From: an uncultured delta proteobacterium
Lineage (GTDB): Bacteria > Desulfobacterota > Binatia > Binatales > Binataceae
Direction: 5' to 3'
NCBI GenBank assembly: GCA_963794325.1
Contig: CAWCDG010000005.1
Span: forward strand, 160,001-224,000
DNA length: 64,000 nt
The translations under genes and the position numbers were made by a program. The notes under the pieces are model-generated. The model was not told the origin of the DNA. It was given only the letters and a program-made list of their open reading frames with translations, and made no database searches. The number at the start of each line of letters is the position of its first letter. The first letter of the stretch is position 1. Positions 3,556-55,457 of this stretch are shown here, in pieces.

Positions 3556-4277
3556 GGCATCTTCCGTATTGCCAGGCGCGCGGCGTCGAGGTCTGACGCT
3601 TCATCCACGTCGATCGAACCTTCAAGCTCGATCGCATCCAGGCGCATCCCGCGTTCGATGATCAGCGCCAGGAAGCGACGGAGCGCATCGAGTCCCGCGC
3701 GTCGCGCGTCGGCGGCCAAGTCGAAAACCCTGGTCGACAGAACATAGAGTCCCGCCGTGACCATAGAAGTCTGACCTTCGCCCAGCCGCAGGATCAAGCC
3801 ATTCTGTGTTACATCGGCGAAAAGCGGCTTGGCCTCGCCGCGCCATTGCGTGACGGCCAGCACGCCAGCGAAATTTTTATCGCCACATTCCTCGATTTTT
3901 CGAATCGACTCATTAACAAAACTCACCAATTCCATCTGTGGAATTACAGCGTCCACGGTCGATGCGATAAACCATCCGGGCTCGAGCAGCTCGCCGAGTG
4001 CGAGCATCGTTTCCATCGAGTTGGCAGTATCGCGAACGACCAGGCAGAGCGCCGGTGGAATCTCGAGCACCATTTCCTTCGCGCGGCGCGCCGTTTCGGA
4101 ATTGATCACCGCGACGACCGATGACGCACCAGCGTCGAGGAGCGCGCGCGCTTGCCGCGAGAGCATCGCCTCGCCGCCGAGCTGGACGAGCGGCTTGGGG
4201 ATGTCGTCGCGGGTCGAGATGCGCAAACGATCGCCTCGGCCGGCGGCGATGATCGCTCCTTGAAGTGCGATCACCAT
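3552..4277 (-). CDS. Nucleotidyltransferase (NTP_transferase; IPCT/LicC-like)
   Basis: AIIAAGRGDRL...PKPLVQLGG N-terminal motif and C-terminal IDVDEASDL. Confidence 0.85.
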   Translation of the reverse strand: MVIALQGAIIAAGRGDRLRISTRDDIPKPLVQLGGEAMLSRQARALLDAGASSVVAVINSETARRAKEMVLEIPPALCLVVRDTANSMETMLALGELLEPGWFIASTVDAVIPQMELVSFVNESIRKIEECGDKNFAGVLAVTQWRGEAKPLFADVTQNGLILRLGEGQTSMVTAGLYVLSTRVFDLAADARRAGLDALRRFLALIIERGMRLDAIELEGSIDVDEASDLDAARLAIRKMP

Positions 4278-4999
4278 TCGATCAGCGCAACTTCGTCGAT
4301 ACTTCGGATGGTGACGTCGGCGTCGGCGGAATCTTCATCGCGTCGCGGCTCGCTGCATAGCCAGACGGTGCGCATGCCAAGCTTGCGTGCAGGTGCACAA
4401 TCCTTGCTGAGCGAATCGCCGATCATTGCAACCGATTCGGGCGCACATTGTAATTTTTTCAGTGCGGCCTGGTAGATTCCAACTTCGGGTTTAAAAATTT
4501 TGACGCTCGACGAATCAGCGACTGCCGCGAAGAATCGATTCAGCCGCGCTTCTTCGAGGACGCGATCGAGATTTCCGTAGAAGTTGGACACGATGCCCAT
4601 CTTGAAACGGTCTTTTAATGGACCGACGACTTCACGGCTGTGCGAGAGACCGGCCGACGTCTCGCGGACGAAGGATTTGGTGACAGCCTCGACGAATCGA
4701 TGACGCCCGCCCGCGCCGGAATCGTCGAGTACCTTGCGCAGCGGATCGGGACCGCTTTTCCGCAGGTATTCGAATTGATGGCCGACGAGGAAGCGCACCA
4801 GGTCGGTCATCCCGAAGCGCGCGACGACTCTGGTGGCGCCGTAGCCGATTCGCGTCGCATGATCGAAGGCCGGGTCGAGTTCGACGCGCGAGATTTCGAT
4901 TCCGGCGTCGCGGTAACTGGCCAGAAAGCGGTCAAGCCAATGCGCAGGCCCGTCAAGCGTGCCGCCGAAATCGAACAGGAGAGCCGTGATCGTGGCCAT
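4271..4999 (-). CDS. HAD-family hydrolase (class IA)
   Basis: LLFDFGGTLD, GIVSNF, KP..IY, MIGDSLSKDCAPARKLGM. Confidence 0.9.
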   Translation of the reverse strand: MATITALLFDFGGTLDGPAHWLDRFLASYRDAGIEISRVELDPAFDHATRIGYGATRVVARFGMTDLVRFLVGHQFEYLRKSGPDPLRKVLDDSGAGGRHRFVEAVTKSFVRETSAGLSHSREVVGPLKDRFKMGIVSNFYGNLDRVLEEARLNRFFAAVADSSSVKIFKPEVGIYQAALKKLQCAPESVAMIGDSLSKDCAPARKLGMRTVWLCSEPRRDEDSADADVTIRSIDEVALIEW

Positions 5000-5230
5000 G
5001 AAGGGCCAAGTCTATCAGCCGGATTGAGCATCCTCCAGATTCGGTTTCCATCGTTGCTGACCGATCAAACAGGCACTTTTTTGGATAAGAAAAAGACTGG
5101 CCTCGGATGAAAGACGAACTCATAATCAGGGAGTGAGGTTAGTAGCACTACTACTTCCTCTGGCATTACCGCTGTGTTACGGTGGCGCGAGCAACCGAGA
5201 TGGGGGAAACCGGGTTTTAACGAGACGCCA

Positions 5231-6412
5231 TTGATTGAAACTGCTCTAATCGCTGCACCTGACCGCGCGGATAATGCGGTCTTCGGACGCCCGCTTTTGG
5301 AGCGGCTGATGATCAACTGCGAGCGTGCCGGGATTAGACGGTTTGTGGTGGCAGCACCACACAATCGTCATCCGGATGTCGCGCGCGCGATGGGCCGATT
5401 CAAAAATTTGAACACAGTCTCGATGGTCGAATCGTTCGGCGAGATTCTAAATGGCGGTGCGCAGAATTTGGGCATCGACGCGTCGTCGCCGTGCGTGTCG
5501 TTTTCGGGGAACCTGGTATTCGCGAAGTCGCAGCTGAAACGAATACTCGACGCGCATGCCTCCAATCCGCAGTCGATGCATCGGACCGTAAGCGCCGATC
5601 ATGACCACGGCGGGGAAATCGTGACCGGTCCGATCGGCGAGATTCTAAAGAGCGGCGGCATCTCGAACACGGTGTCGATGCCGTCGGCGAGCCTGCTGCC
5701 GTTCGCGCTGAACGGACGCCCTCAGGATCGCGAGGAGGCCGAGCTGCGGCTGGCGAAGTCGATTCGCGAGGAATCGGCGCATAAGGACGCTCCGATGGCG
5801 CGATGGGTGGACCGCAAGATTTCGTGGCGAATCAGCTACTGGCTGGCAACGCAGACGCGCGCCACGCCGAACATGGTCACGGTTACGAATACGATGTTCG
5901 GGCTTTTGTGCGCGTGGATGTTCTCGGTGCCGAATTACTGGATGCGGCTGTTCGCGGCGATTTTCTTTTTGATTTCGATCACGATCGACGGGGTTGACGG
6001 AGAATTGGCGCGGCTCAAAATGATCGAGAGCGATTTCGGCGGCAAGCTCGATGTCTTTACCGACAATATCGTGCATGCCGGGGTATTCGTCGGGCTGCTG
6101 GTCGGATGCTACCGCGTCGAATATAGCCGCGCTTACCTGTATCTGATCCCGATACTACTCGGCGGATTTGCGGCGTGTGCTTATGCGACGTGGCGCGCTT
6201 TCGAAATAAAGGGCGAGCAGGCGGCCCAGTGGCTGGACAAAGTTGATCGATGGAGCGGGCGCGATTTCGCGTACTTGCTCGTGGTATTAGCCTTAATCAA
6301 TCGGATAGAGTTCTTCGCGTGGGGAACAGCCTTCGGCAGCTACGTGTTTGCCGCAGTGCTGATATGGATCACCGGCCAAACCGAATCGTCAATGAAGACT
6401 GAGAGCTTGTAG
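5231..6412 (+). CDS. CDP-alcohol phosphatidyltransferase with a degenerate N-terminal nucleotidyltransferase-like domain
   Basis: TPNMVT and DGVDGELAR...GGKLDVFTD signature, C-terminal TM helices, N-terminal GRPLLERL..AGI. Start uncertain (5174 or TTG 5231). Confidence 0.85.
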   Translation: MIETALIAAPDRADNAVFGRPLLERLMINCERAGIRRFVVAAPHNRHPDVARAMGRFKNLNTVSMVESFGEILNGGAQNLGIDASSPCVSFSGNLVFAKSQLKRILDAHASNPQSMHRTVSADHDHGGEIVTGPIGEILKSGGISNTVSMPSASLLPFALNGRPQDREEAELRLAKSIREESAHKDAPMARWVDRKISWRISYWLATQTRATPNMVTVTNTMFGLLCAWMFSVPNYWMRLFAAIFFLISITIDGVDGELARLKMIESDFGGKLDVFTDNIVHAGVFVGLLVGCYRVEYSRAYLYLIPILLGGFAACAYATWRAFEIKGEQAAQWLDKVDRWSGRDFAYLLVVLALINRIEFFAWGTAFGSYVFAAVLIWITGQTESSMKTESL

Positions 6413-7787: not shown

Positions 7788-8102
7788 TTGATCCTAAAGA
7801 CCCTTGCGATTCTGATACTGGCCGCAGCGCTCGAAGTAGGCGGGGATGCGCTGGTGCGGATAGGACTGCATAGCTACGGCTACTCGCTGGCAGCCGGTGC
7901 GTTCGCGCTGTTCGCATACGGAATCCTGGTCAATCAAAGCGGCGTCGATTTCAACCGCCTGATGGGAATCTACATCGCGGTGTTCTTCGTGGTGTCGCAG
8001 GCGATCTCGTTCCTGTTCTTCAAGCAAATCCCCGACGACAAAATAATTCTGGGCGGAGGCTTCATAGTAACCGGCGGCCTCGTGATTTTGTTGATGACGT
8101 GA
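7788..8102 (+). CDS. Small 4-TM membrane protein (YnfA/SMR-like)
   Basis: 104 aa, four hydrophobic segments, AALEVGG with a membrane-embedded Glu. Confidence 0.65.
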   Translation: MILKTLAILILAAALEVGGDALVRIGLHSYGYSLAAGAFALFAYGILVNQSGVDFNRLMGIYIAVFFVVSQAISFLFFKQIPDDKIILGGGFIVTGGLVILLMT

Positions 8103-8120
8103 ATCCGGCTCCTTCCGCTC

Positions 8121-8262
8121 CCTCGCCCCATGTGGGGAGAGGGTTGGGGTGAGGGACATTTGTGCGGCGCGGTTCTCTGTTGCGCCGCACATCCGGAATC
8201 TTCAGCAAATTTGGTCCCTCACCCGCCGCTCGAAGACGAGCCGCGACCTCTCCCCACGTGGA
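8121..8262. repeat. Inverted pair of GTCCCTCACC..CCTCTCCC repeats enclosing a hairpin
   Basis: 8121-8157 cctcgccccatgtggggagagggttggggtgagggac; inner hairpin tgtgcggcgc..gcgccgcaca; 8213-8259 ggtccctcacccgccgctcgaagacgagccgcgacctctccccacgt. Confidence 0.75.
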
Positions 8263-8460: not shown

Positions 8461-9318
8461 ATGATCGAAGCAAAGTACACTCTGGACTACAAACTGATCG
8501 GTACTCAAATCGATCGACTGCTCGAAAGTGTCGTCAATAGGGCTGAGCGAGAATGGCCAAAATCATCGGACCCACCCACTAACGAGGCTTATACGGTAAT
8601 GATTGGCACTTTGCGGAGTGTTGCGAATACCTTTAAGACGGTCCGATACTTGTGCGCAGAAAAATCTCCAGATTGGCGTCACCGTCCGGAGCTCGCTCTC
8701 GCAACACCGCCGCTCGTGCGAACAATTCTCGATTCGTTCTACACGGTTGTTTTTGTATTTGAGGATATTCGTCCTCGTTCGGAATGGTACATGCATTCGG
8801 GATGGAGGGAACTTGCGGAGTATGTTGATCGAGTCAAGCGTGACTACGGTTCAGATCCAGTCTGGAAGGAATACTTAGACGAAACCGTCCCCAGATTGGA
8901 GCAACTTAGAATTATGATCGGTAGGCCGGAAAGCGAGCTAAGGAAGACGATTTGGTGGCCGACACCTCCGCAAATGAAAAACTTTGCTTTGCGCGCTGAT
9001 ACCATCAAGTTTTTCGAATATTTGCGCGATTGGTATTACAAAGAGTTCTCAGCTGTTTCGCATCTTAGCTTGCCAGGTCTCATTCAATCCGTAACGCCGT
9101 TAATGCAAGGTGTCGATGTAGCGAAGGTCGAACAGTTACGCGGTTACTACTTTAAGCAGGTCACAATTTTGTTGATGGCTATCTATTCCGAGTTTGAAGC
9201 TGAGTTAACGCCCGGGGTCTCGGCGGATCTCAAATACGTGTGGCAAATGTTGCACCAGCACTATCCGTTCGCCAAAGAGATTTATCAGCACCGCAACTAC
9301 GATTCCCGACTCAGTTGA
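8461..9318 (+). CDS. Hypothetical protein, possibly DUF5677/HEPN-like
   Basis: 285-aa ORF, visibly more AT-rich than neighbours; helical-looking, with LVRTILDS and YYKEFSAVSH motifs. Family call tentative. Confidence 0.6.
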   Translation: MIEAKYTLDYKLIGTQIDRLLESVVNRAEREWPKSSDPPTNEAYTVMIGTLRSVANTFKTVRYLCAEKSPDWRHRPELALATPPLVRTILDSFYTVVFVFEDIRPRSEWYMHSGWRELAEYVDRVKRDYGSDPVWKEYLDETVPRLEQLRIMIGRPESELRKTIWWPTPPQMKNFALRADTIKFFEYLRDWYYKEFSAVSHLSLPGLIQSVTPLMQGVDVAKVEQLRGYYFKQVTILLMAIYSEFEAELTPGVSADLKYVWQMLHQHYPFAKEIYQHRNYDSRLS

Positions 9319-9430: not shown

Positions 9431-10785
9431 GTACAGACCGGGAGGATCGGTAACAGAATAGACCGGCAGGATGGGTAACAGATTGAATGCTACGGCAGGA
9501 GGAGCGAAGCGATGCCGTGGCGGGAGGTCTGTTCGATGGACGAGAAGATGCGGTTGATGGTGGCGCTGTCGGCCGAAGAGGAGAGCGTGACGGAGCTGTG
9601 CGAGGACTTCGGCATCAGCCGCAAGACCGCGTACAAGTGGTGGGCGCGTTACCGGCAGTTCGGCCCTGAGGGACTGAAGGAACGATCGCACGCGCCGGCG
9701 CTGGTGCCATGGGCGATATGCGACGCCCAGGCCGAGGCGATCATCGCAGTGCGCCGGGCGCATCCGAGTTGGGGACCGAAGAAGCTGCGCGCCAGACTCA
9801 GCCAAAGCGCGCCCAACCAGAGCTGGCCGGCGCCGAACACCATCGGAGAGTTGCTGCGCCGCGAACAACTCAGCCAGCCGCGCAAGCGGCGGCGCAGCGC
9901 GCGACCGTCGCCGATCCCCTTGCGCACGGCATTGGCGCCCAACGACATCTGGTGTACCGATTTCAAGGGCCCGTTCCATACCCAGGACGGCATGCGCTGC
10001 GATCCCTTCACTCTGACCGACGCCTACAGCCGCTACCTGTTATGCGTCAAGGCGGTCAATAAAGCTGGCTACGACGACTGCCGCAGCGAGCTGGAGCGGG
10101 TGTTTCGGGAGTACGGCCTGCCACGCGCGATCCGCTCGGATAACGGTCCACCGTTCGCCTCGAGCGGGGTGACCGGACTCAGTCGGCTGTCGGTGTGGTG
10201 GCTAAAGCTCGGCATCATGCCGGAGCGGATCGAACCGGGCAGGCCAGAGCAGAACGGGCGGCACGAACGGATGCACAAGACGCTCAAGGCCGAATGCGCC
10301 AGTCCGCCGCAAGCCGACCGTGGCTCGCAGCAGAATCGCTTCGATCAGTTCCGCGAAGAGTTCAATCAGCAGCGGCCACACGAGGCGCTGGGTCAGACCG
10401 CGCCGGCGACGCACTATACACCGTCGCCGCGCAGCTATCCGTCCAGGCTCGAGGATCCCGCCTATCCGGCCGACTACCAGCCGCGGCGCGTGCGCCACAC
10501 CGGCGATATCAAATGGCAGGGGGAATCGGTCTTCCTGAGCGAGACTTGAGCAATGAGGTAGTAGGAATAGTTGAAACCGATGAGGGAGATGCGGTGGCCT
10601 ACTACGGACCGCTGATACTCGGGCTCATCGACGGCGTCAGCTTAAAACTGCGCCGCCTGCAGCCTGCCAGCAGTTCCACAGTCGGGCGAGGGGGGCAGCC
10701 CCCCTCGCGCTCCTCCCCGTCAAACTCAGAAATAGTGTTACCTATCATGCCGGTCTAAAGTGTTACCGATCATCCCGGTCGCTCA
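9431..10785 (+). mobile_element. IS481-family insertion sequence
   Basis: Imperfect inverted ends with internal repeats: left gaccgggaggatcggtaaca..gaccggcaggatgggtaaca, right tgttacctatcatgccggtc..tgttaccgatcatcccggtc. Possible CGGG duplication (9427-9430, 10786-10789). Exact ends uncertain by a few nt. Confidence 0.85.
9512..10758 (+). pseudogene. IS481 DDE transposase, frameshifted near 10545
   Basis: MPWRE.. HTH start, WCTDFKG, IRSDNGPPF, EQNGRHERMHKTLK. Stop at 10549; the expected tail LSNEVVGIVETDEG..YYGPLILG continues in another frame. Confidence 0.8.
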
Positions 10786-12763: not shown

Positions 12764-12845
12764 AACCTAACCCCTAACCCCTTCCCGAGCGGGAAGGGGG
12801 ACCGGATTGGGGAGAGTAACCTCTTCCCGAGCGGGAAGGGGAACA
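12764..12845. repeat. Tandem palindromic repeats, CTTCCC..GGGAAG variant
   Basis: aacctaacccctaaccccttcccgagcgggaagggg followed by aacctcttcccgagcgggaaggggaac. Confidence 0.75.
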
Positions 12846-12861
12846 ATCGCGGAGGCTTCGA

Positions 12862-54381: not shown

Positions 54382-54600
54382 TCAGCCGCCACCGACGAAA
54401 TTTATTATCTCCACCTGATCCCCCACTCTCACAACCGTCGCGTCGTAATTAGCCTTCGGCACAATCTCGCGATTGATCTCGACTGCGACGCGCCCGCGCC
54501 GCATCTTCAGGCGCTCGAGCAACTCGGTCAGTGGCGTATCGCCGCTGACCGGATACGAGTCCCCGTTGAGTATAATTGAACTTGCGATGGAGTCCGGCAT
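54382..54600 (-). CDS. thiS: Sulfur carrier protein
   Basis: VAVEINREIVP, C-terminal FVGGG. Confidence 0.95.
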   Translation of the reverse strand: MPDSIASSIILNGDSYPVSGDTPLTELLERLKMRRGRVAVEINREIVPKANYDATVVRVGDQVEIINFVGGG

Positions 54601-54662
54601 TATTGAGCCGCTTCCCCGGTGTGGAGAAGCGGCCCAGGCGCAGCCGCGAACGTTGCGCCATT

Positions 54663-54748
54663 GGCTTCCCTACGCCGGCATTACCCGGATCAGGTTCGAG
54701 GGGTTCTCCCGAGGGAGCTCTCAGTGCGTGTTATGCACACCCCCAGCC
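54663..54748 (-). ncRNA. TPP riboswitch
   Basis: Minus strand GGGGTG..CTGAGA..CCCTCGAACCTGATCCGGGTAATGCCGGCGTAGGGAAG, upstream of thiSGE. Confidence 0.95.
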
Positions 54749-54757
54749 TGCGATCCG

Positions 54758-54786
54758 ACTATACGACTCCCGCCGCGAACTGTCAA
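54758..54786 (-). promoter_or_regulatory. Sigma-70 promoter of the thi operon
   Basis: Minus strand TTGACA-17 nt-TATAGT, ending about 10 nt before the riboswitch. Confidence 0.85.
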
Positions 54787-54795
54787 AAATCCGCT

Positions 54796-55355
54796 CTTCG
54801 CCTCTCCCGTCGGGAGAGGATTTAAGGAGAGGGACTTTATTCAGCGCGCGGCTTCGCGCGCGATTCAAGATTTTGGTTCCTTGCGTGCCTTGTGTTCTTC
54901 TCCGAAACTGCAAAATTCCCGCAATCATGCCCTCGTCCGAAGCATCTCACGAAACTGCGCGCAGACTACGCCGTGAGCAAACTCCTGGGGAGCAGGTCCT
55001 CTGGCGGCATTTGCGAACTAAACGCATGTGCAACGTGAAATTCCGCCGCCAACATCCTATCGGTCCGTACTTCGTCGACTTCTGCTCGATTCAACGAAAA
55101 TTGATCGTCGAGATCGATGGCGGACAGCACGCCGAACGATCCGCCGAAGATGAGGTTCGCAGCTCCTTTCTCAAATCGTACGGCTACCGCGTGCTGCGAT
55201 TTTGGAATCACCAGGTGTTGGAGAGCATCGACGAAGTGCTGGCTGAGATCGAGAAATTCCTGGGCGCAGATTCTTCAGAATCTTGAATCGCGCGCGATGA
55301 CGCGCGCTGAATAAGGTCCCTCTCCTTAAATCCTCTCCCGTCGGGAGAGGGGAAC
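54796..55355 (+). mobile_element. Putative 560-bp DUF559 mini-element
   Basis: 72-bp inverted repeats 54801-54872 and 55279-55350 (4 mismatches); direct repeat AAAATCCGCT at 54786-54795 and 55356-55365. Confidence 0.7.
54927..55286 (+). CDS. DUF559 / Vsr-like endonuclease-domain protein (119 aa)
   Basis: ARRLRREQT..E..LW..LR, KFRRQHPIGPYFVDF, LIVEIDGGQH, D..R..FL...GYRVLRFWN. Confidence 0.92.
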   Translation: MPSSEASHETARRLRREQTPGEQVLWRHLRTKRMCNVKFRRQHPIGPYFVDFCSIQRKLIVEIDGGQHAERSAEDEVRSSFLKSYGYRVLRFWNHQVLESIDEVLAEIEKFLGADSSES

Positions 55356-55457
55356 AAAATCCGCTGCTATGCTTGAGGCTTTGTGGGTGTCGGAATGGCG
55401 GACTCGAGTGCCACTATGCTAATCCGAAATCGATCCCAGGACCTGACAGGAGCCGCT

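Follow-up and report, generated by a model that had tools for sequence, protein, structure and literature searches.

In a 64,000-nucleotide (nt) stretch of Binatia DNA (hereafter the window; positions 160,001 to 224,000 of contig CAWCDG010000005.1, assembly GCA_963794325.1, from an uncultured delta proteobacterium), a gene for a small DUF559 nuclease lies between two inverted arms. We found that the packaging of DUF559 genes between inverted arms is a family trait, that the arms carry a motif of the published BoxC/PIT/TMECO type, and that gene and inverted arms together are a discrete unit occurring in different genomic contexts. As far as our searches go, a DUF559 gene with inward BoxC-type arms is an undescribed unit. 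The parts of the unit in the window are as follows.

54797..54875, plus strand: left arm, a module of about 80 nt in which a triplex-type motif is joined by a GC hairpin and, on the inner side, a conserved tail (nhmmer 54798-54878, E 4e-19).
54801..54833, plus strand: BoxC/PIT/TMECO-type motif of the left arm, with C-block CCTCTCCC, a 3-nt loop, G-block GGGAGAGG, a 6-nt loop and mirror G-block GGAGAGGG.
54844..54861, plus strand: second hairpin of the left arm, with a 7-bp GC-only stem that is kept in Binatia-type arms.
54927..55286, plus strand: gene for the DUF559 (YcjD-like, Vsr-like PD-(D/E)XK) nuclease, with ATG at 54927, stop codon at 55284-55286 and a product of 119 amino acids (aa).
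55276..55354, minus strand: right arm, the left-arm module in inverted orientation (nhmmer 55275-55354, E 1.5e-20).
55290..55307, minus strand: second hairpin of the right arm, beginning 4 nt past the DUF559 stop codon.
55318..55351, minus strand: BoxC/PIT/TMECO-type motif of the right arm, found by pattern search.
54786..54795, plus strand: left copy of the 10-nt direct repeat AAAATCCGCT, 1 nt beyond the left arm and covering the first base of the -35 hexamer of the neighbouring thi promoter.
55356..55365, plus strand: right copy of AAAATCCGCT, 1 nt beyond the right arm.

The two arms (79 nt each) are 92% complementary and are spaced by 400 nt. Their 72-nt core (54801-54872 and 55279-55350), which the first-pass annotation of the window had described as identical at 68 of 72 positions, was reproduced with its 4 mismatches and extended to the full arm length. 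The same annotation had placed in the element a single gene, encoding a 119-aa DUF559/Vsr-like protein with its stop codon inside the right repeat, and this was confirmed (Pfam, E 5e-42); 11 nt of the 3′ end of the gene overlap the right arm. Two hairpins per repeat had also been proposed, and single-strand folding bore them out: each arm folded as single-stranded DNA into CCTCTCCC-3 nt-GGGAGAGG and the GC-only stem (z-scores of -3.6 to -5.0 relative to 200 shuffled sequences). The window contains the 19-nt outer hairpin at two sites only, even when up to 3 mismatches are allowed (expected, 0.02). The direct 10-mer was found where it had been reported, 5 nt from each 72-nt core, and these are its sole two copies in the window (expected, 0.21; at least two copies in 2 of 100 shuffles). 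The element has a G+C content of 55%, compared with 60-61% in its 2-kb flanks. An Rfam scan of the element gave no match beyond the chance level (E 0.43), and a promoter scan found no sigma-70-like promoter for the DUF559 gene within it. Covariation in the arms was not used as evidence: the counts of pairs changed on both sides in the first hairpin largely reflect a 1-nt shift in alignment register, and in the second hairpin each of 3 pairs shows 1 compensatory change.

The 119-aa protein matched Pfam PF04480 (DUF559) over profile positions 4-108 of 109 (E 5.1e-42; 142.6 bits against a cut-off of 20.6). This search returned no DDE or HUH/Y1 domain, only DUF559 and, below its cut-off, REase_MTES_1575, in line with the earlier description of the nuclease as non-DDE and non-HUH; the Vsr profile PF03852 was unreported at E <= 0.01. 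The restriction-endonuclease-like fold that had been ascribed to DUF559 was recovered by Foldseek from an AlphaFold2 model (a single domain; predicted local distance difference test, 83.8), which matched 3HRL, 3R3P and 1VSR. The top match was 3HRL, the uncharacterised Neisseria gonorrhoeae protein NGO0050 (E 3e-8; template modelling (TM) scores 0.70/0.87), followed by 3R3P, the catalytic domain of the homing endonuclease I-Bth0305I (TM 0.75-0.77, E 7e-5, 26-27% identity), and the match to Vsr (1VSR) was weak (E 0.04, TM 0.46). By sequence search, 3HRL was the only solved structure retrieved (E 1e-29). The NCBIfam model PRK09767 matched at 99 bits, under its equivalog cut-off of 218 bits, and the PADLOC ‘homing endonuclease’ model matched weakly (E 2.5e-4). 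The fold model also matched the nuclease domains of the 5-hydroxymethylcytosine-dependent enzymes PvuRts1I and AbaSI, as well as mitochondrial ribosome subunits of Toxoplasma (E ~6e-4) and Tetrahymena (E 0.04). The nearest relatives of the protein are 90-92% identical and lie mostly on short metagenome contigs; the named ones belong to Candidatus Binatus. In an alignment of 79 homologues, which leaves out L017 (in-frame stop) and L028, residues D51, E62, D64 and D75 are invariant (79/79) and H68 is present in 78/79; an in-frame stop occurs in 1 of 81 DUF559 genes. Judged from these sequences, the protein is under selection and has a conserved predicted nuclease active site, and by analogy with Vsr and I-Bth0305I the D51/E62/D64/H68/D75 set would be catalytic. 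A single homodimer prediction run scored 0.03, which speaks neither for nor against binding.

To assess the family, we took the best 80 of 361 relatives in species-representative genomes (loci with L numbers below), which come from many phyla and share 43-80% protein identity. These loci were picked on protein similarity alone, which leaves their flanks unbiased by selection. The 350 nt upstream of each gene were aligned to the reverse complement of the 350 nt downstream, and control scores were obtained from 419 positions shifted by 1.4-3 kb (mean 21.5, 99th percentile 31, maximum 35). With L044 excluded for its short length, 79 scorable loci remained. Flanking inverted repeats scored above the control 99th percentile at 66/79 loci and above the control maximum at 61/79; most of the DUF559 genes scored are thus framed by inverted repeats, in a survey of the kind that the first-pass annotation had suggested. 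The homologous loci span Binatia, Proteobacteria, Chloroflexota, Nitrospirota, Planctomycetota and Neisseria, and arms are present at both Neisseria loci, L065 and L076. At L056 the gene lies between exceptionally long arms (3723-3968 and 4417-4662; 246 nt, score 462). Clusters resembling BIMEs stand beside the gene at L012 (4645-5338; five alternating inverted motif pairs) and at L048 (4642-5149; three direct motif copies with a 237-nt period). L017 (4001-4339) has two well-kept arms around a DUF559 frame with one in-frame stop and is a possible pseudogene.

Across phyla, the arms have in common a C-block, a short loop, a complementary G-block, a short loop and a second G-block, with the G-rich strand reading inward on both sides of the gene. 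The TMECO consensus of Holder 2015 (PMC4666352), in which the first loop has 3-6 nt and the second about 3 nt, is the same motif, and BoxC and PIT element are given there as earlier names; Kaplan et al. 2016 (PMC5100583) treat the same motif as a G-quadruplex-hairpin-duplex switch. In Holder 2015 (PMC4666352), the folded single strand of the motif is described as a stable triplex in vitro, its origin and spread are stated to be unclear, and no mobility genes are said to have been found near it. The terms ‘endonuclease’ and ‘ycjD’ have 0 occurrences in the text of Holder 2015 (PMC4666352) and Kaplan 2016 (PMC5100583), and we found no literature linking DUF559 or ycjD to this repeat, as judged mostly from titles and abstracts.

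Strict motifs were counted in 601,122 nt (the 80 loci plus 8.4 kb of the window), of which the zones counted as gene-adjacent make up about one tenth. The count was 91: 60 inward beside DUF559 (30 upstream and 30 downstream), 13 outward beside DUF559 and 18 elsewhere. The arms in the window are a variant of the motif. They share with BoxC/PIT/TMECO the three-block design (C-block, complementary G-block, mirror G-block) and the occurrence of both inverted pairs and solo copies, and differ in their 8-nt blocks, their 6-nt second loop and a longer module of about 80 nt with a second GC hairpin. The strict pattern found neither arm, a relaxed pattern found the right arm, and a looser pattern found both. 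Binatia-type elements have the motif on the outer side of the conserved module and the GC-only hairpin in the same module. The second G-block of the window arms is an exact mirror of the first, which is the arrangement required by a purine-motif triplex. Two further copies of a C-block/G-block hairpin, CCCCTTCCC ... GGGAAGGGG, lie at 12770-12850 of the window as another variant of the motif class, one of them preceded by TAA-spaced C-tracts, and a similar hairpin is present at L007 (7070-7107).

Upstream and downstream arms differ in their loops. A TTA or CTA loop separates the G-blocks in 10/22 upstream arms compared with 2/22 downstream arms (Fisher p = 0.016), and the CC loop class also differs between the two sides (Fisher p = 0.048). 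A left/right asymmetry like that of the type A plus type B pairs of Escherichia coli was considered and is a tendency only, with a sign test on loop A+T content giving 10 vs 4 (p = 0.18).

The boundaries of the unit were examined with the window element plus 200 nt of flank on each side as query (element = query 201-758). Homology to L002, L003, L004 and L007 starts at query 196-205 and stops at 758-763, within 5 nt of the arm ends. Homology thus stops at the arm tips, and the unit therefore ends there. The flanks of the window element match the flanks of no other locus, and the neighbours vary: thiS and a PhyH-family gene in the window, Amidase_3 in L003 and, in L002, an alpha/beta hydrolase. 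The window protein is 80% identical to that of L001 and 79% identical to that of L003, and the proteins of L001 and L003 share 77%, whereas L001 and L004, which have both flanks in common, share only 71%. Closer identity across differing flanks indicates that copies of one sub-lineage sit at different loci; this comparison is to be read with the caveat that the genomes carry several gene copies and that metagenome-assembled genomes are incomplete. L002 and L006 come from one assembly, so that several DUF559 copies are possible per Binatia genome. DNA identity between copies at different sites is 66-79%, and none is therefore a recent copy of another.

Two loci show rearranged units. At L002 (3850-5040), two complete units with 95% identical proteins stand in tandem; the tandem repeats 16-17 nt of the left flank, the right arm of the first unit is disrupted, and the arrangement resembles a duplicated segment whose breakpoint fell within an arm. 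At L001 (4431-4662), an intact unit is followed by a second, internally deleted DUF559 copy, whose right arm is cut just before the outer hairpin, where a transposase gene of the IS110 family (DEDD) starts (4666-5817). IS110-type elements are known to target palindromic repeats.

The arm module also occurs without the gene. A hidden Markov model (HMM) of the module gave 45 hits in the 80 loci and the window, 38 beside DUF559 and 7 solo; three of the hits fall in the window, two of them being the arms of its DUF559 gene. The clear solo arm of the window is the following.

8119..8198, plus strand: gene-less arm module, intergenic (HMM E 3e-10; 86% identity to the right arm of L017).

It lies between open reading frames (ORFs) 7788-8102 and 8461-9318 and is followed by a degenerate inverted partner to about 8262; its segment 8120-8155 fits the strict published TMECO consensus. 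In its predicted single-strand fold, the G-containing ‘mismatch’ C-block pairs with the second G-block via a G-T wobble, and the first G-block is looped out. About 1.2 kb from this arm, an ORF at 9512-10546 (plus strand) encodes a protein with helix-turn-helix (HTH), rve and rve_3 domains (DDE-type transposase).

In E. coli K-12, 23 motifs including 5 inverted pairs accompany one DUF559 gene, ycjD (1351407-1351760). YcjD and NGO0050 (3HRL) belong to the same DUF559 family as the window protein, and both are uncharacterised. The motif near ycjD is single, direct and outlying: TMECO no. 9 ends 168 nt past the ycjD stop codon in direct, not inverted, orientation. The locus is degenerate, the region 1351204-1351760 comprising a degenerate motif at the ycjD end and a duplicated fragment of the DUF559 C-terminus, then TMECO no. 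9. Of 5,426 complete E. coli genomes, 3,378 carry ycjD and 2,048 lack it, and no clean empty junction was found at this locus; where ycjD is missing, the entire segment has been replaced, TMECO no. 9 with it. In a similar look for empty sites in Azospirillum, all 7 records matching the locus retain the gene. Holder 2015 (PMC4666352) describes TMECO loci as rearrangement-prone in E. coli. The BoxC pair between hrpB and mrcB has three alleles: full (K-12), collapsed to a single hairpin (O111:H8) and absent (ST131-like, about 104 nt shorter). Comparison of these three alleles showed no clean duplication at the filled and empty junctions. The collapsed form is that expected from deletion between the 9-nt direct G-blocks.

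At the window locus, the element is adjoined by thiS on one side and the PhyH-family gene on the other, and lies directly upstream of the -35 box of a minus-strand thiS (54382-54600)-thiG-thiE operon. A thiamine pyrophosphate (TPP) riboswitch (54650-54754, minus strand, 78 bits) is located between thiS and the promoter.

54758..54786, minus strand: sigma-70-like promoter of the thiS-thiG operon, with -35 TTGACA at 54786..54781 and -10 TATAGT at 54763..54758 (11/12 positions match).

This promoter is a property of the thi operon and not of the element. The left copy of the 10-mer touches its -35 box without breaking it, as had been noted earlier, the overlap being the first base of the hexamer only. 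A TTG-started ORF of 236 aa (54576-55286, plus strand) crosses the left arm and continues in the DUF559 frame. Annotation software could take it for one long protein whose low-complexity N-terminus is encoded by the arm, and if the nuclease services the repeats, arm-derived low-complexity N- or C-terminal extensions on mis-called ORFs would be explained.

With an even chance of being right, in our estimate, the unit is selfish or semi-autonomous, and its nuclease would act on its own structured arms and lead to copying by break and repair rather than by classical transposition. The nuclease would recognise its arms, either as an interrupted palindrome in duplex DNA or as the hairpin or triplex of a single-stranded arm, and would nick or cut there. 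The break would be repaired by copying from another arm-bearing copy, and such copying, homing-like or recombinational and distinct from transposase strand transfer, would maintain and spread both the unit and its gene-less derivatives. The 10-nt duplication in the window may be a by-product of one insertion event, through fill-in of a staggered break or through microhomology, and would be no hallmark of the mechanism; that insertion may have survived because the thi promoter was left intact. We prefer repair copying over strand transfer because the protein is a bare nuclease core, because flanking duplications are absent at the other loci (see below) and because the nearest characterised relative is a homing enzyme. 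The first-pass annotation had proposed a minimal selfish element like REP/RAYT; the discrete ends within 5 nt, the packaging at 66/79 loci and the dispersed gene-less arms partly support this view, and the part that they do not support is insertion with duplication.

The chemistry of the unit would parallel that of the EDxHD homing endonuclease I-Bth0305I, and its logic that of REP/RAYT systems. The I-Bth0305I homodimer cleaves a pseudopalindromic target; the enzyme carries NUMOD/HTH DNA-binding regions at its N-terminus and is found in a group I intron of a phage (Taylor et al. 2011, PMC3239194). Among characterised proteins, it is the best structural match to the window protein (TM 0.75-0.77), with a conserved acidic/histidine active-site set, and its target is palindrome-like, as the arms would offer. 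Unlike I-Bth0305I, the window protein is a bare 119-aa core encoded in a chromosomal intergenic spacer.

Several observations weigh against an actively copying unit of this kind. Both flanks are shared within each of seven sets of loci drawn from different species, and homologues are rare on plasmids (39/72,556 records, mostly chromids) and on phages (3/50,697 records). These shared flanks and the rarity on plasmids and phages indicate that many copies are old and vertically inherited, not actively mobile. The flanking repeat is non-significant at 13/79 loci, the 64-kb window has only 1 clear solo arm, and the symmetric 10-nt repeat, present at the window locus alone, is unpredicted by the repair-copy model. 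Physical linkage and shared history alone could keep gene and arms together, and contact between nuclease and arm would then not be needed to account for their association. As reported in Holder 2015 (PMC4666352), the double-stranded motif in vitro was a duplex in which the triplex signal was absent, and earlier work cited there saw no in vivo effect of PIT elements. Finally, the Caulobacter protein VsrA, which carries a DUF559 domain, behaves as a methylation-linked endonuclease and, in cells that lack the ScmA methyltransferase, triggers the SOS response (PMC12907096); some DUF559 members, at least, may thus serve the host in repair.

Such a role is the core of the main rival explanation, which we consider unlikely: DUF559 would be a Vsr-like mismatch or damage endonuclease in the service of the cell, and BoxC-type repeats would be unrelated fragile or recombinogenic sites, or expression insulators, that trap or frame the gene by accident. 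Besides the link of VsrA to a cytosine methyltransferase and the SOS response (PMC12907096), it draws on the strong conservation of the protein, on positions kept long-term across species and on the rearrangement-prone TMECO loci of E. coli (PMC4666352 and the three hrpB-mrcB alleles). The window protein and Vsr do share a fold superfamily, but the fold match is weak, Pfam Vsr is unmatched, and no DNA methyltransferase domain was found among the 51 window ORFs of at least 120 aa. Moreover, association by chance or through hot spots would not give 60 inward versus 13 outward motifs, would not recur in 66/79 loci across phyla and leaves the difference between left and right loops (TTA/CTA in 10/22 versus 2/22, p = 0.016) unexplained. 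In addition, work cited in Holder 2015 (PMC4666352) detected neither promoter nor terminator activity in PIT elements.

A somewhat less probable alternative is RAYT-like. In REP/REPIN-RAYT systems, a small nuclease gene lies between inverted palindromic repeats that are also dispersed without the gene, and the systems are mostly chromosomal and often vertical. By this account, the DUF559 nuclease would act on the folded single-stranded arm at replication forks and mobilise mainly gene-less arms in trans, and the gene itself would stay in place and be inherited vertically. The likeness is evident in the inverted repeats on either side of the DUF559 gene, copies of which are also scattered where the gene is absent. 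It extends to the 23 motifs against one gene in E. coli, to the seven syntenic sets as indicators of vertical inheritance, to arms that fold stably as single-stranded DNA, and to the stable single-strand triplex of the TMECO motif in vitro (Holder 2015, PMC4666352). However, RAYT is an HUH/Y1 transposase and DUF559 a Vsr-like PD-(D/E)XK nuclease, which alone cannot rejoin strands, and the DUF559 repeat is a hairpin plus mirror G-block and not a REP. Solo arms are sparse here (1 in 64 kb), several gene copies per genome are possible (L002 and L006 in one Binatia assembly), and whole units including the gene occur with sharp ends at different loci, which is at odds with a gene that stays in place.

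More doubtful still is an insertion sequence in which DUF559 would be a new transposase that binds the terminal repeats and inserts with a 10-bp target-site duplication. The unit resembles insertion sequences and miniature inverted-repeat transposable elements (MITEs) in its terminal inverted repeats (79 nt, 92%), its sharp ends, its gene-less derivatives and its presence at different sites; the two L002 copies are 95% identical. The 10-mer of the window also fits. When flanks from the 67 loci with significant arms (the window and 66 others) were cross-paired as a null, an exact repeat of at least 10 nt just outside the arms had a frequency of 0.0003. The first-pass annotation had reasoned that the 10-mer would be due to chance if relatives showed no clean single-copy empty site and other DUF559 loci lacked symmetric duplications; the null frequency argues against that, and we conclude that the 10-mer is unlikely to be chance, yet is no family property. 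Flanking direct repeats of at least 9 nt are absent from all 66 other loci with significant arms, although duplications of 9-10 bp were what the first-pass annotation had proposed to score there, and the single 8-nt repeat is asymmetric (offsets 10 and 1). A target-site duplication is thereby ruled out as a family feature, and with it, and with the E. coli arm pair whose filled and empty alleles differ without a clean duplication, the earlier insertion-sequence reading loses its main support. The L002 tandem duplicates left flank as well, which resembles segmental duplication, and the 119-aa nuclease core has no recognised DNA-binding or strand-transfer domain. The unit thus has no recognised transposase (DDE, DEDD, HUH, serine or tyrosine) and no target-site duplication of constant length.

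A programmed inversion switch, in which a recombinase flips the segment between the inverted arms, is very improbable: 79-nt arms at 92% identity could recombine, and ‘DUF559 domain-containing protein’ has an odds ratio of 14.3 among predicted inversion targets (Milman 2023, PMC9881135), but the gene lies wholly between the arms apart from its 11-nt 3′ overlap, so that flipping leaves the product unchanged, the unit has no recombinase gene and is neighboured by thiS and the PhyH-family gene, and gene-less and solo arms go unexplained.

Returning to a nuclease that acts on its own arms, we tentatively propose, at somewhat less than an even chance, that DUF559 (YcjD-like) nucleases are the missing enzymes behind BoxC/PIT/TMECO, and that gene plus arms represents, in autonomous form, a new class of element, mobile or self-maintaining, whose driving enzyme would be a Vsr-like PD-(D/E)XK nuclease that reads non-B DNA. 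The structure read by the nuclease may be a hairpin, an intrastrand triplex or the G-T wobble hairpin of the common ‘mismatch’ motif variant, and the solo and paired BoxC copies of E. coli, puzzling since the 1990s, would be gene-less derivatives of a DUF559 unit. To our knowledge, DUF559 is a very large family that has a solved structure and no established function. BoxC/PIT/TMECO motifs, for their part, are conserved across several hundred bacterial genomes and have attracted study for the triplexes and G-quadruplexes that they form and for the genome instability that they give rise to (Holder 2015, PMC4666352). The tie between DUF559 and BoxC gives each a concrete, testable hypothesis. If it is true that the nuclease services the repeats, the scoring of DUF559 as ‘programmed inversion targets’ in Milman 2023 (PMC9881135) would also be explained, the enrichment there being the inverted repeats at DUF559 genes, picked up and read differently. 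The DUF559 unit would then be a second independent invention of the REP/RAYT arrangement, made with a different nuclease superfamily.

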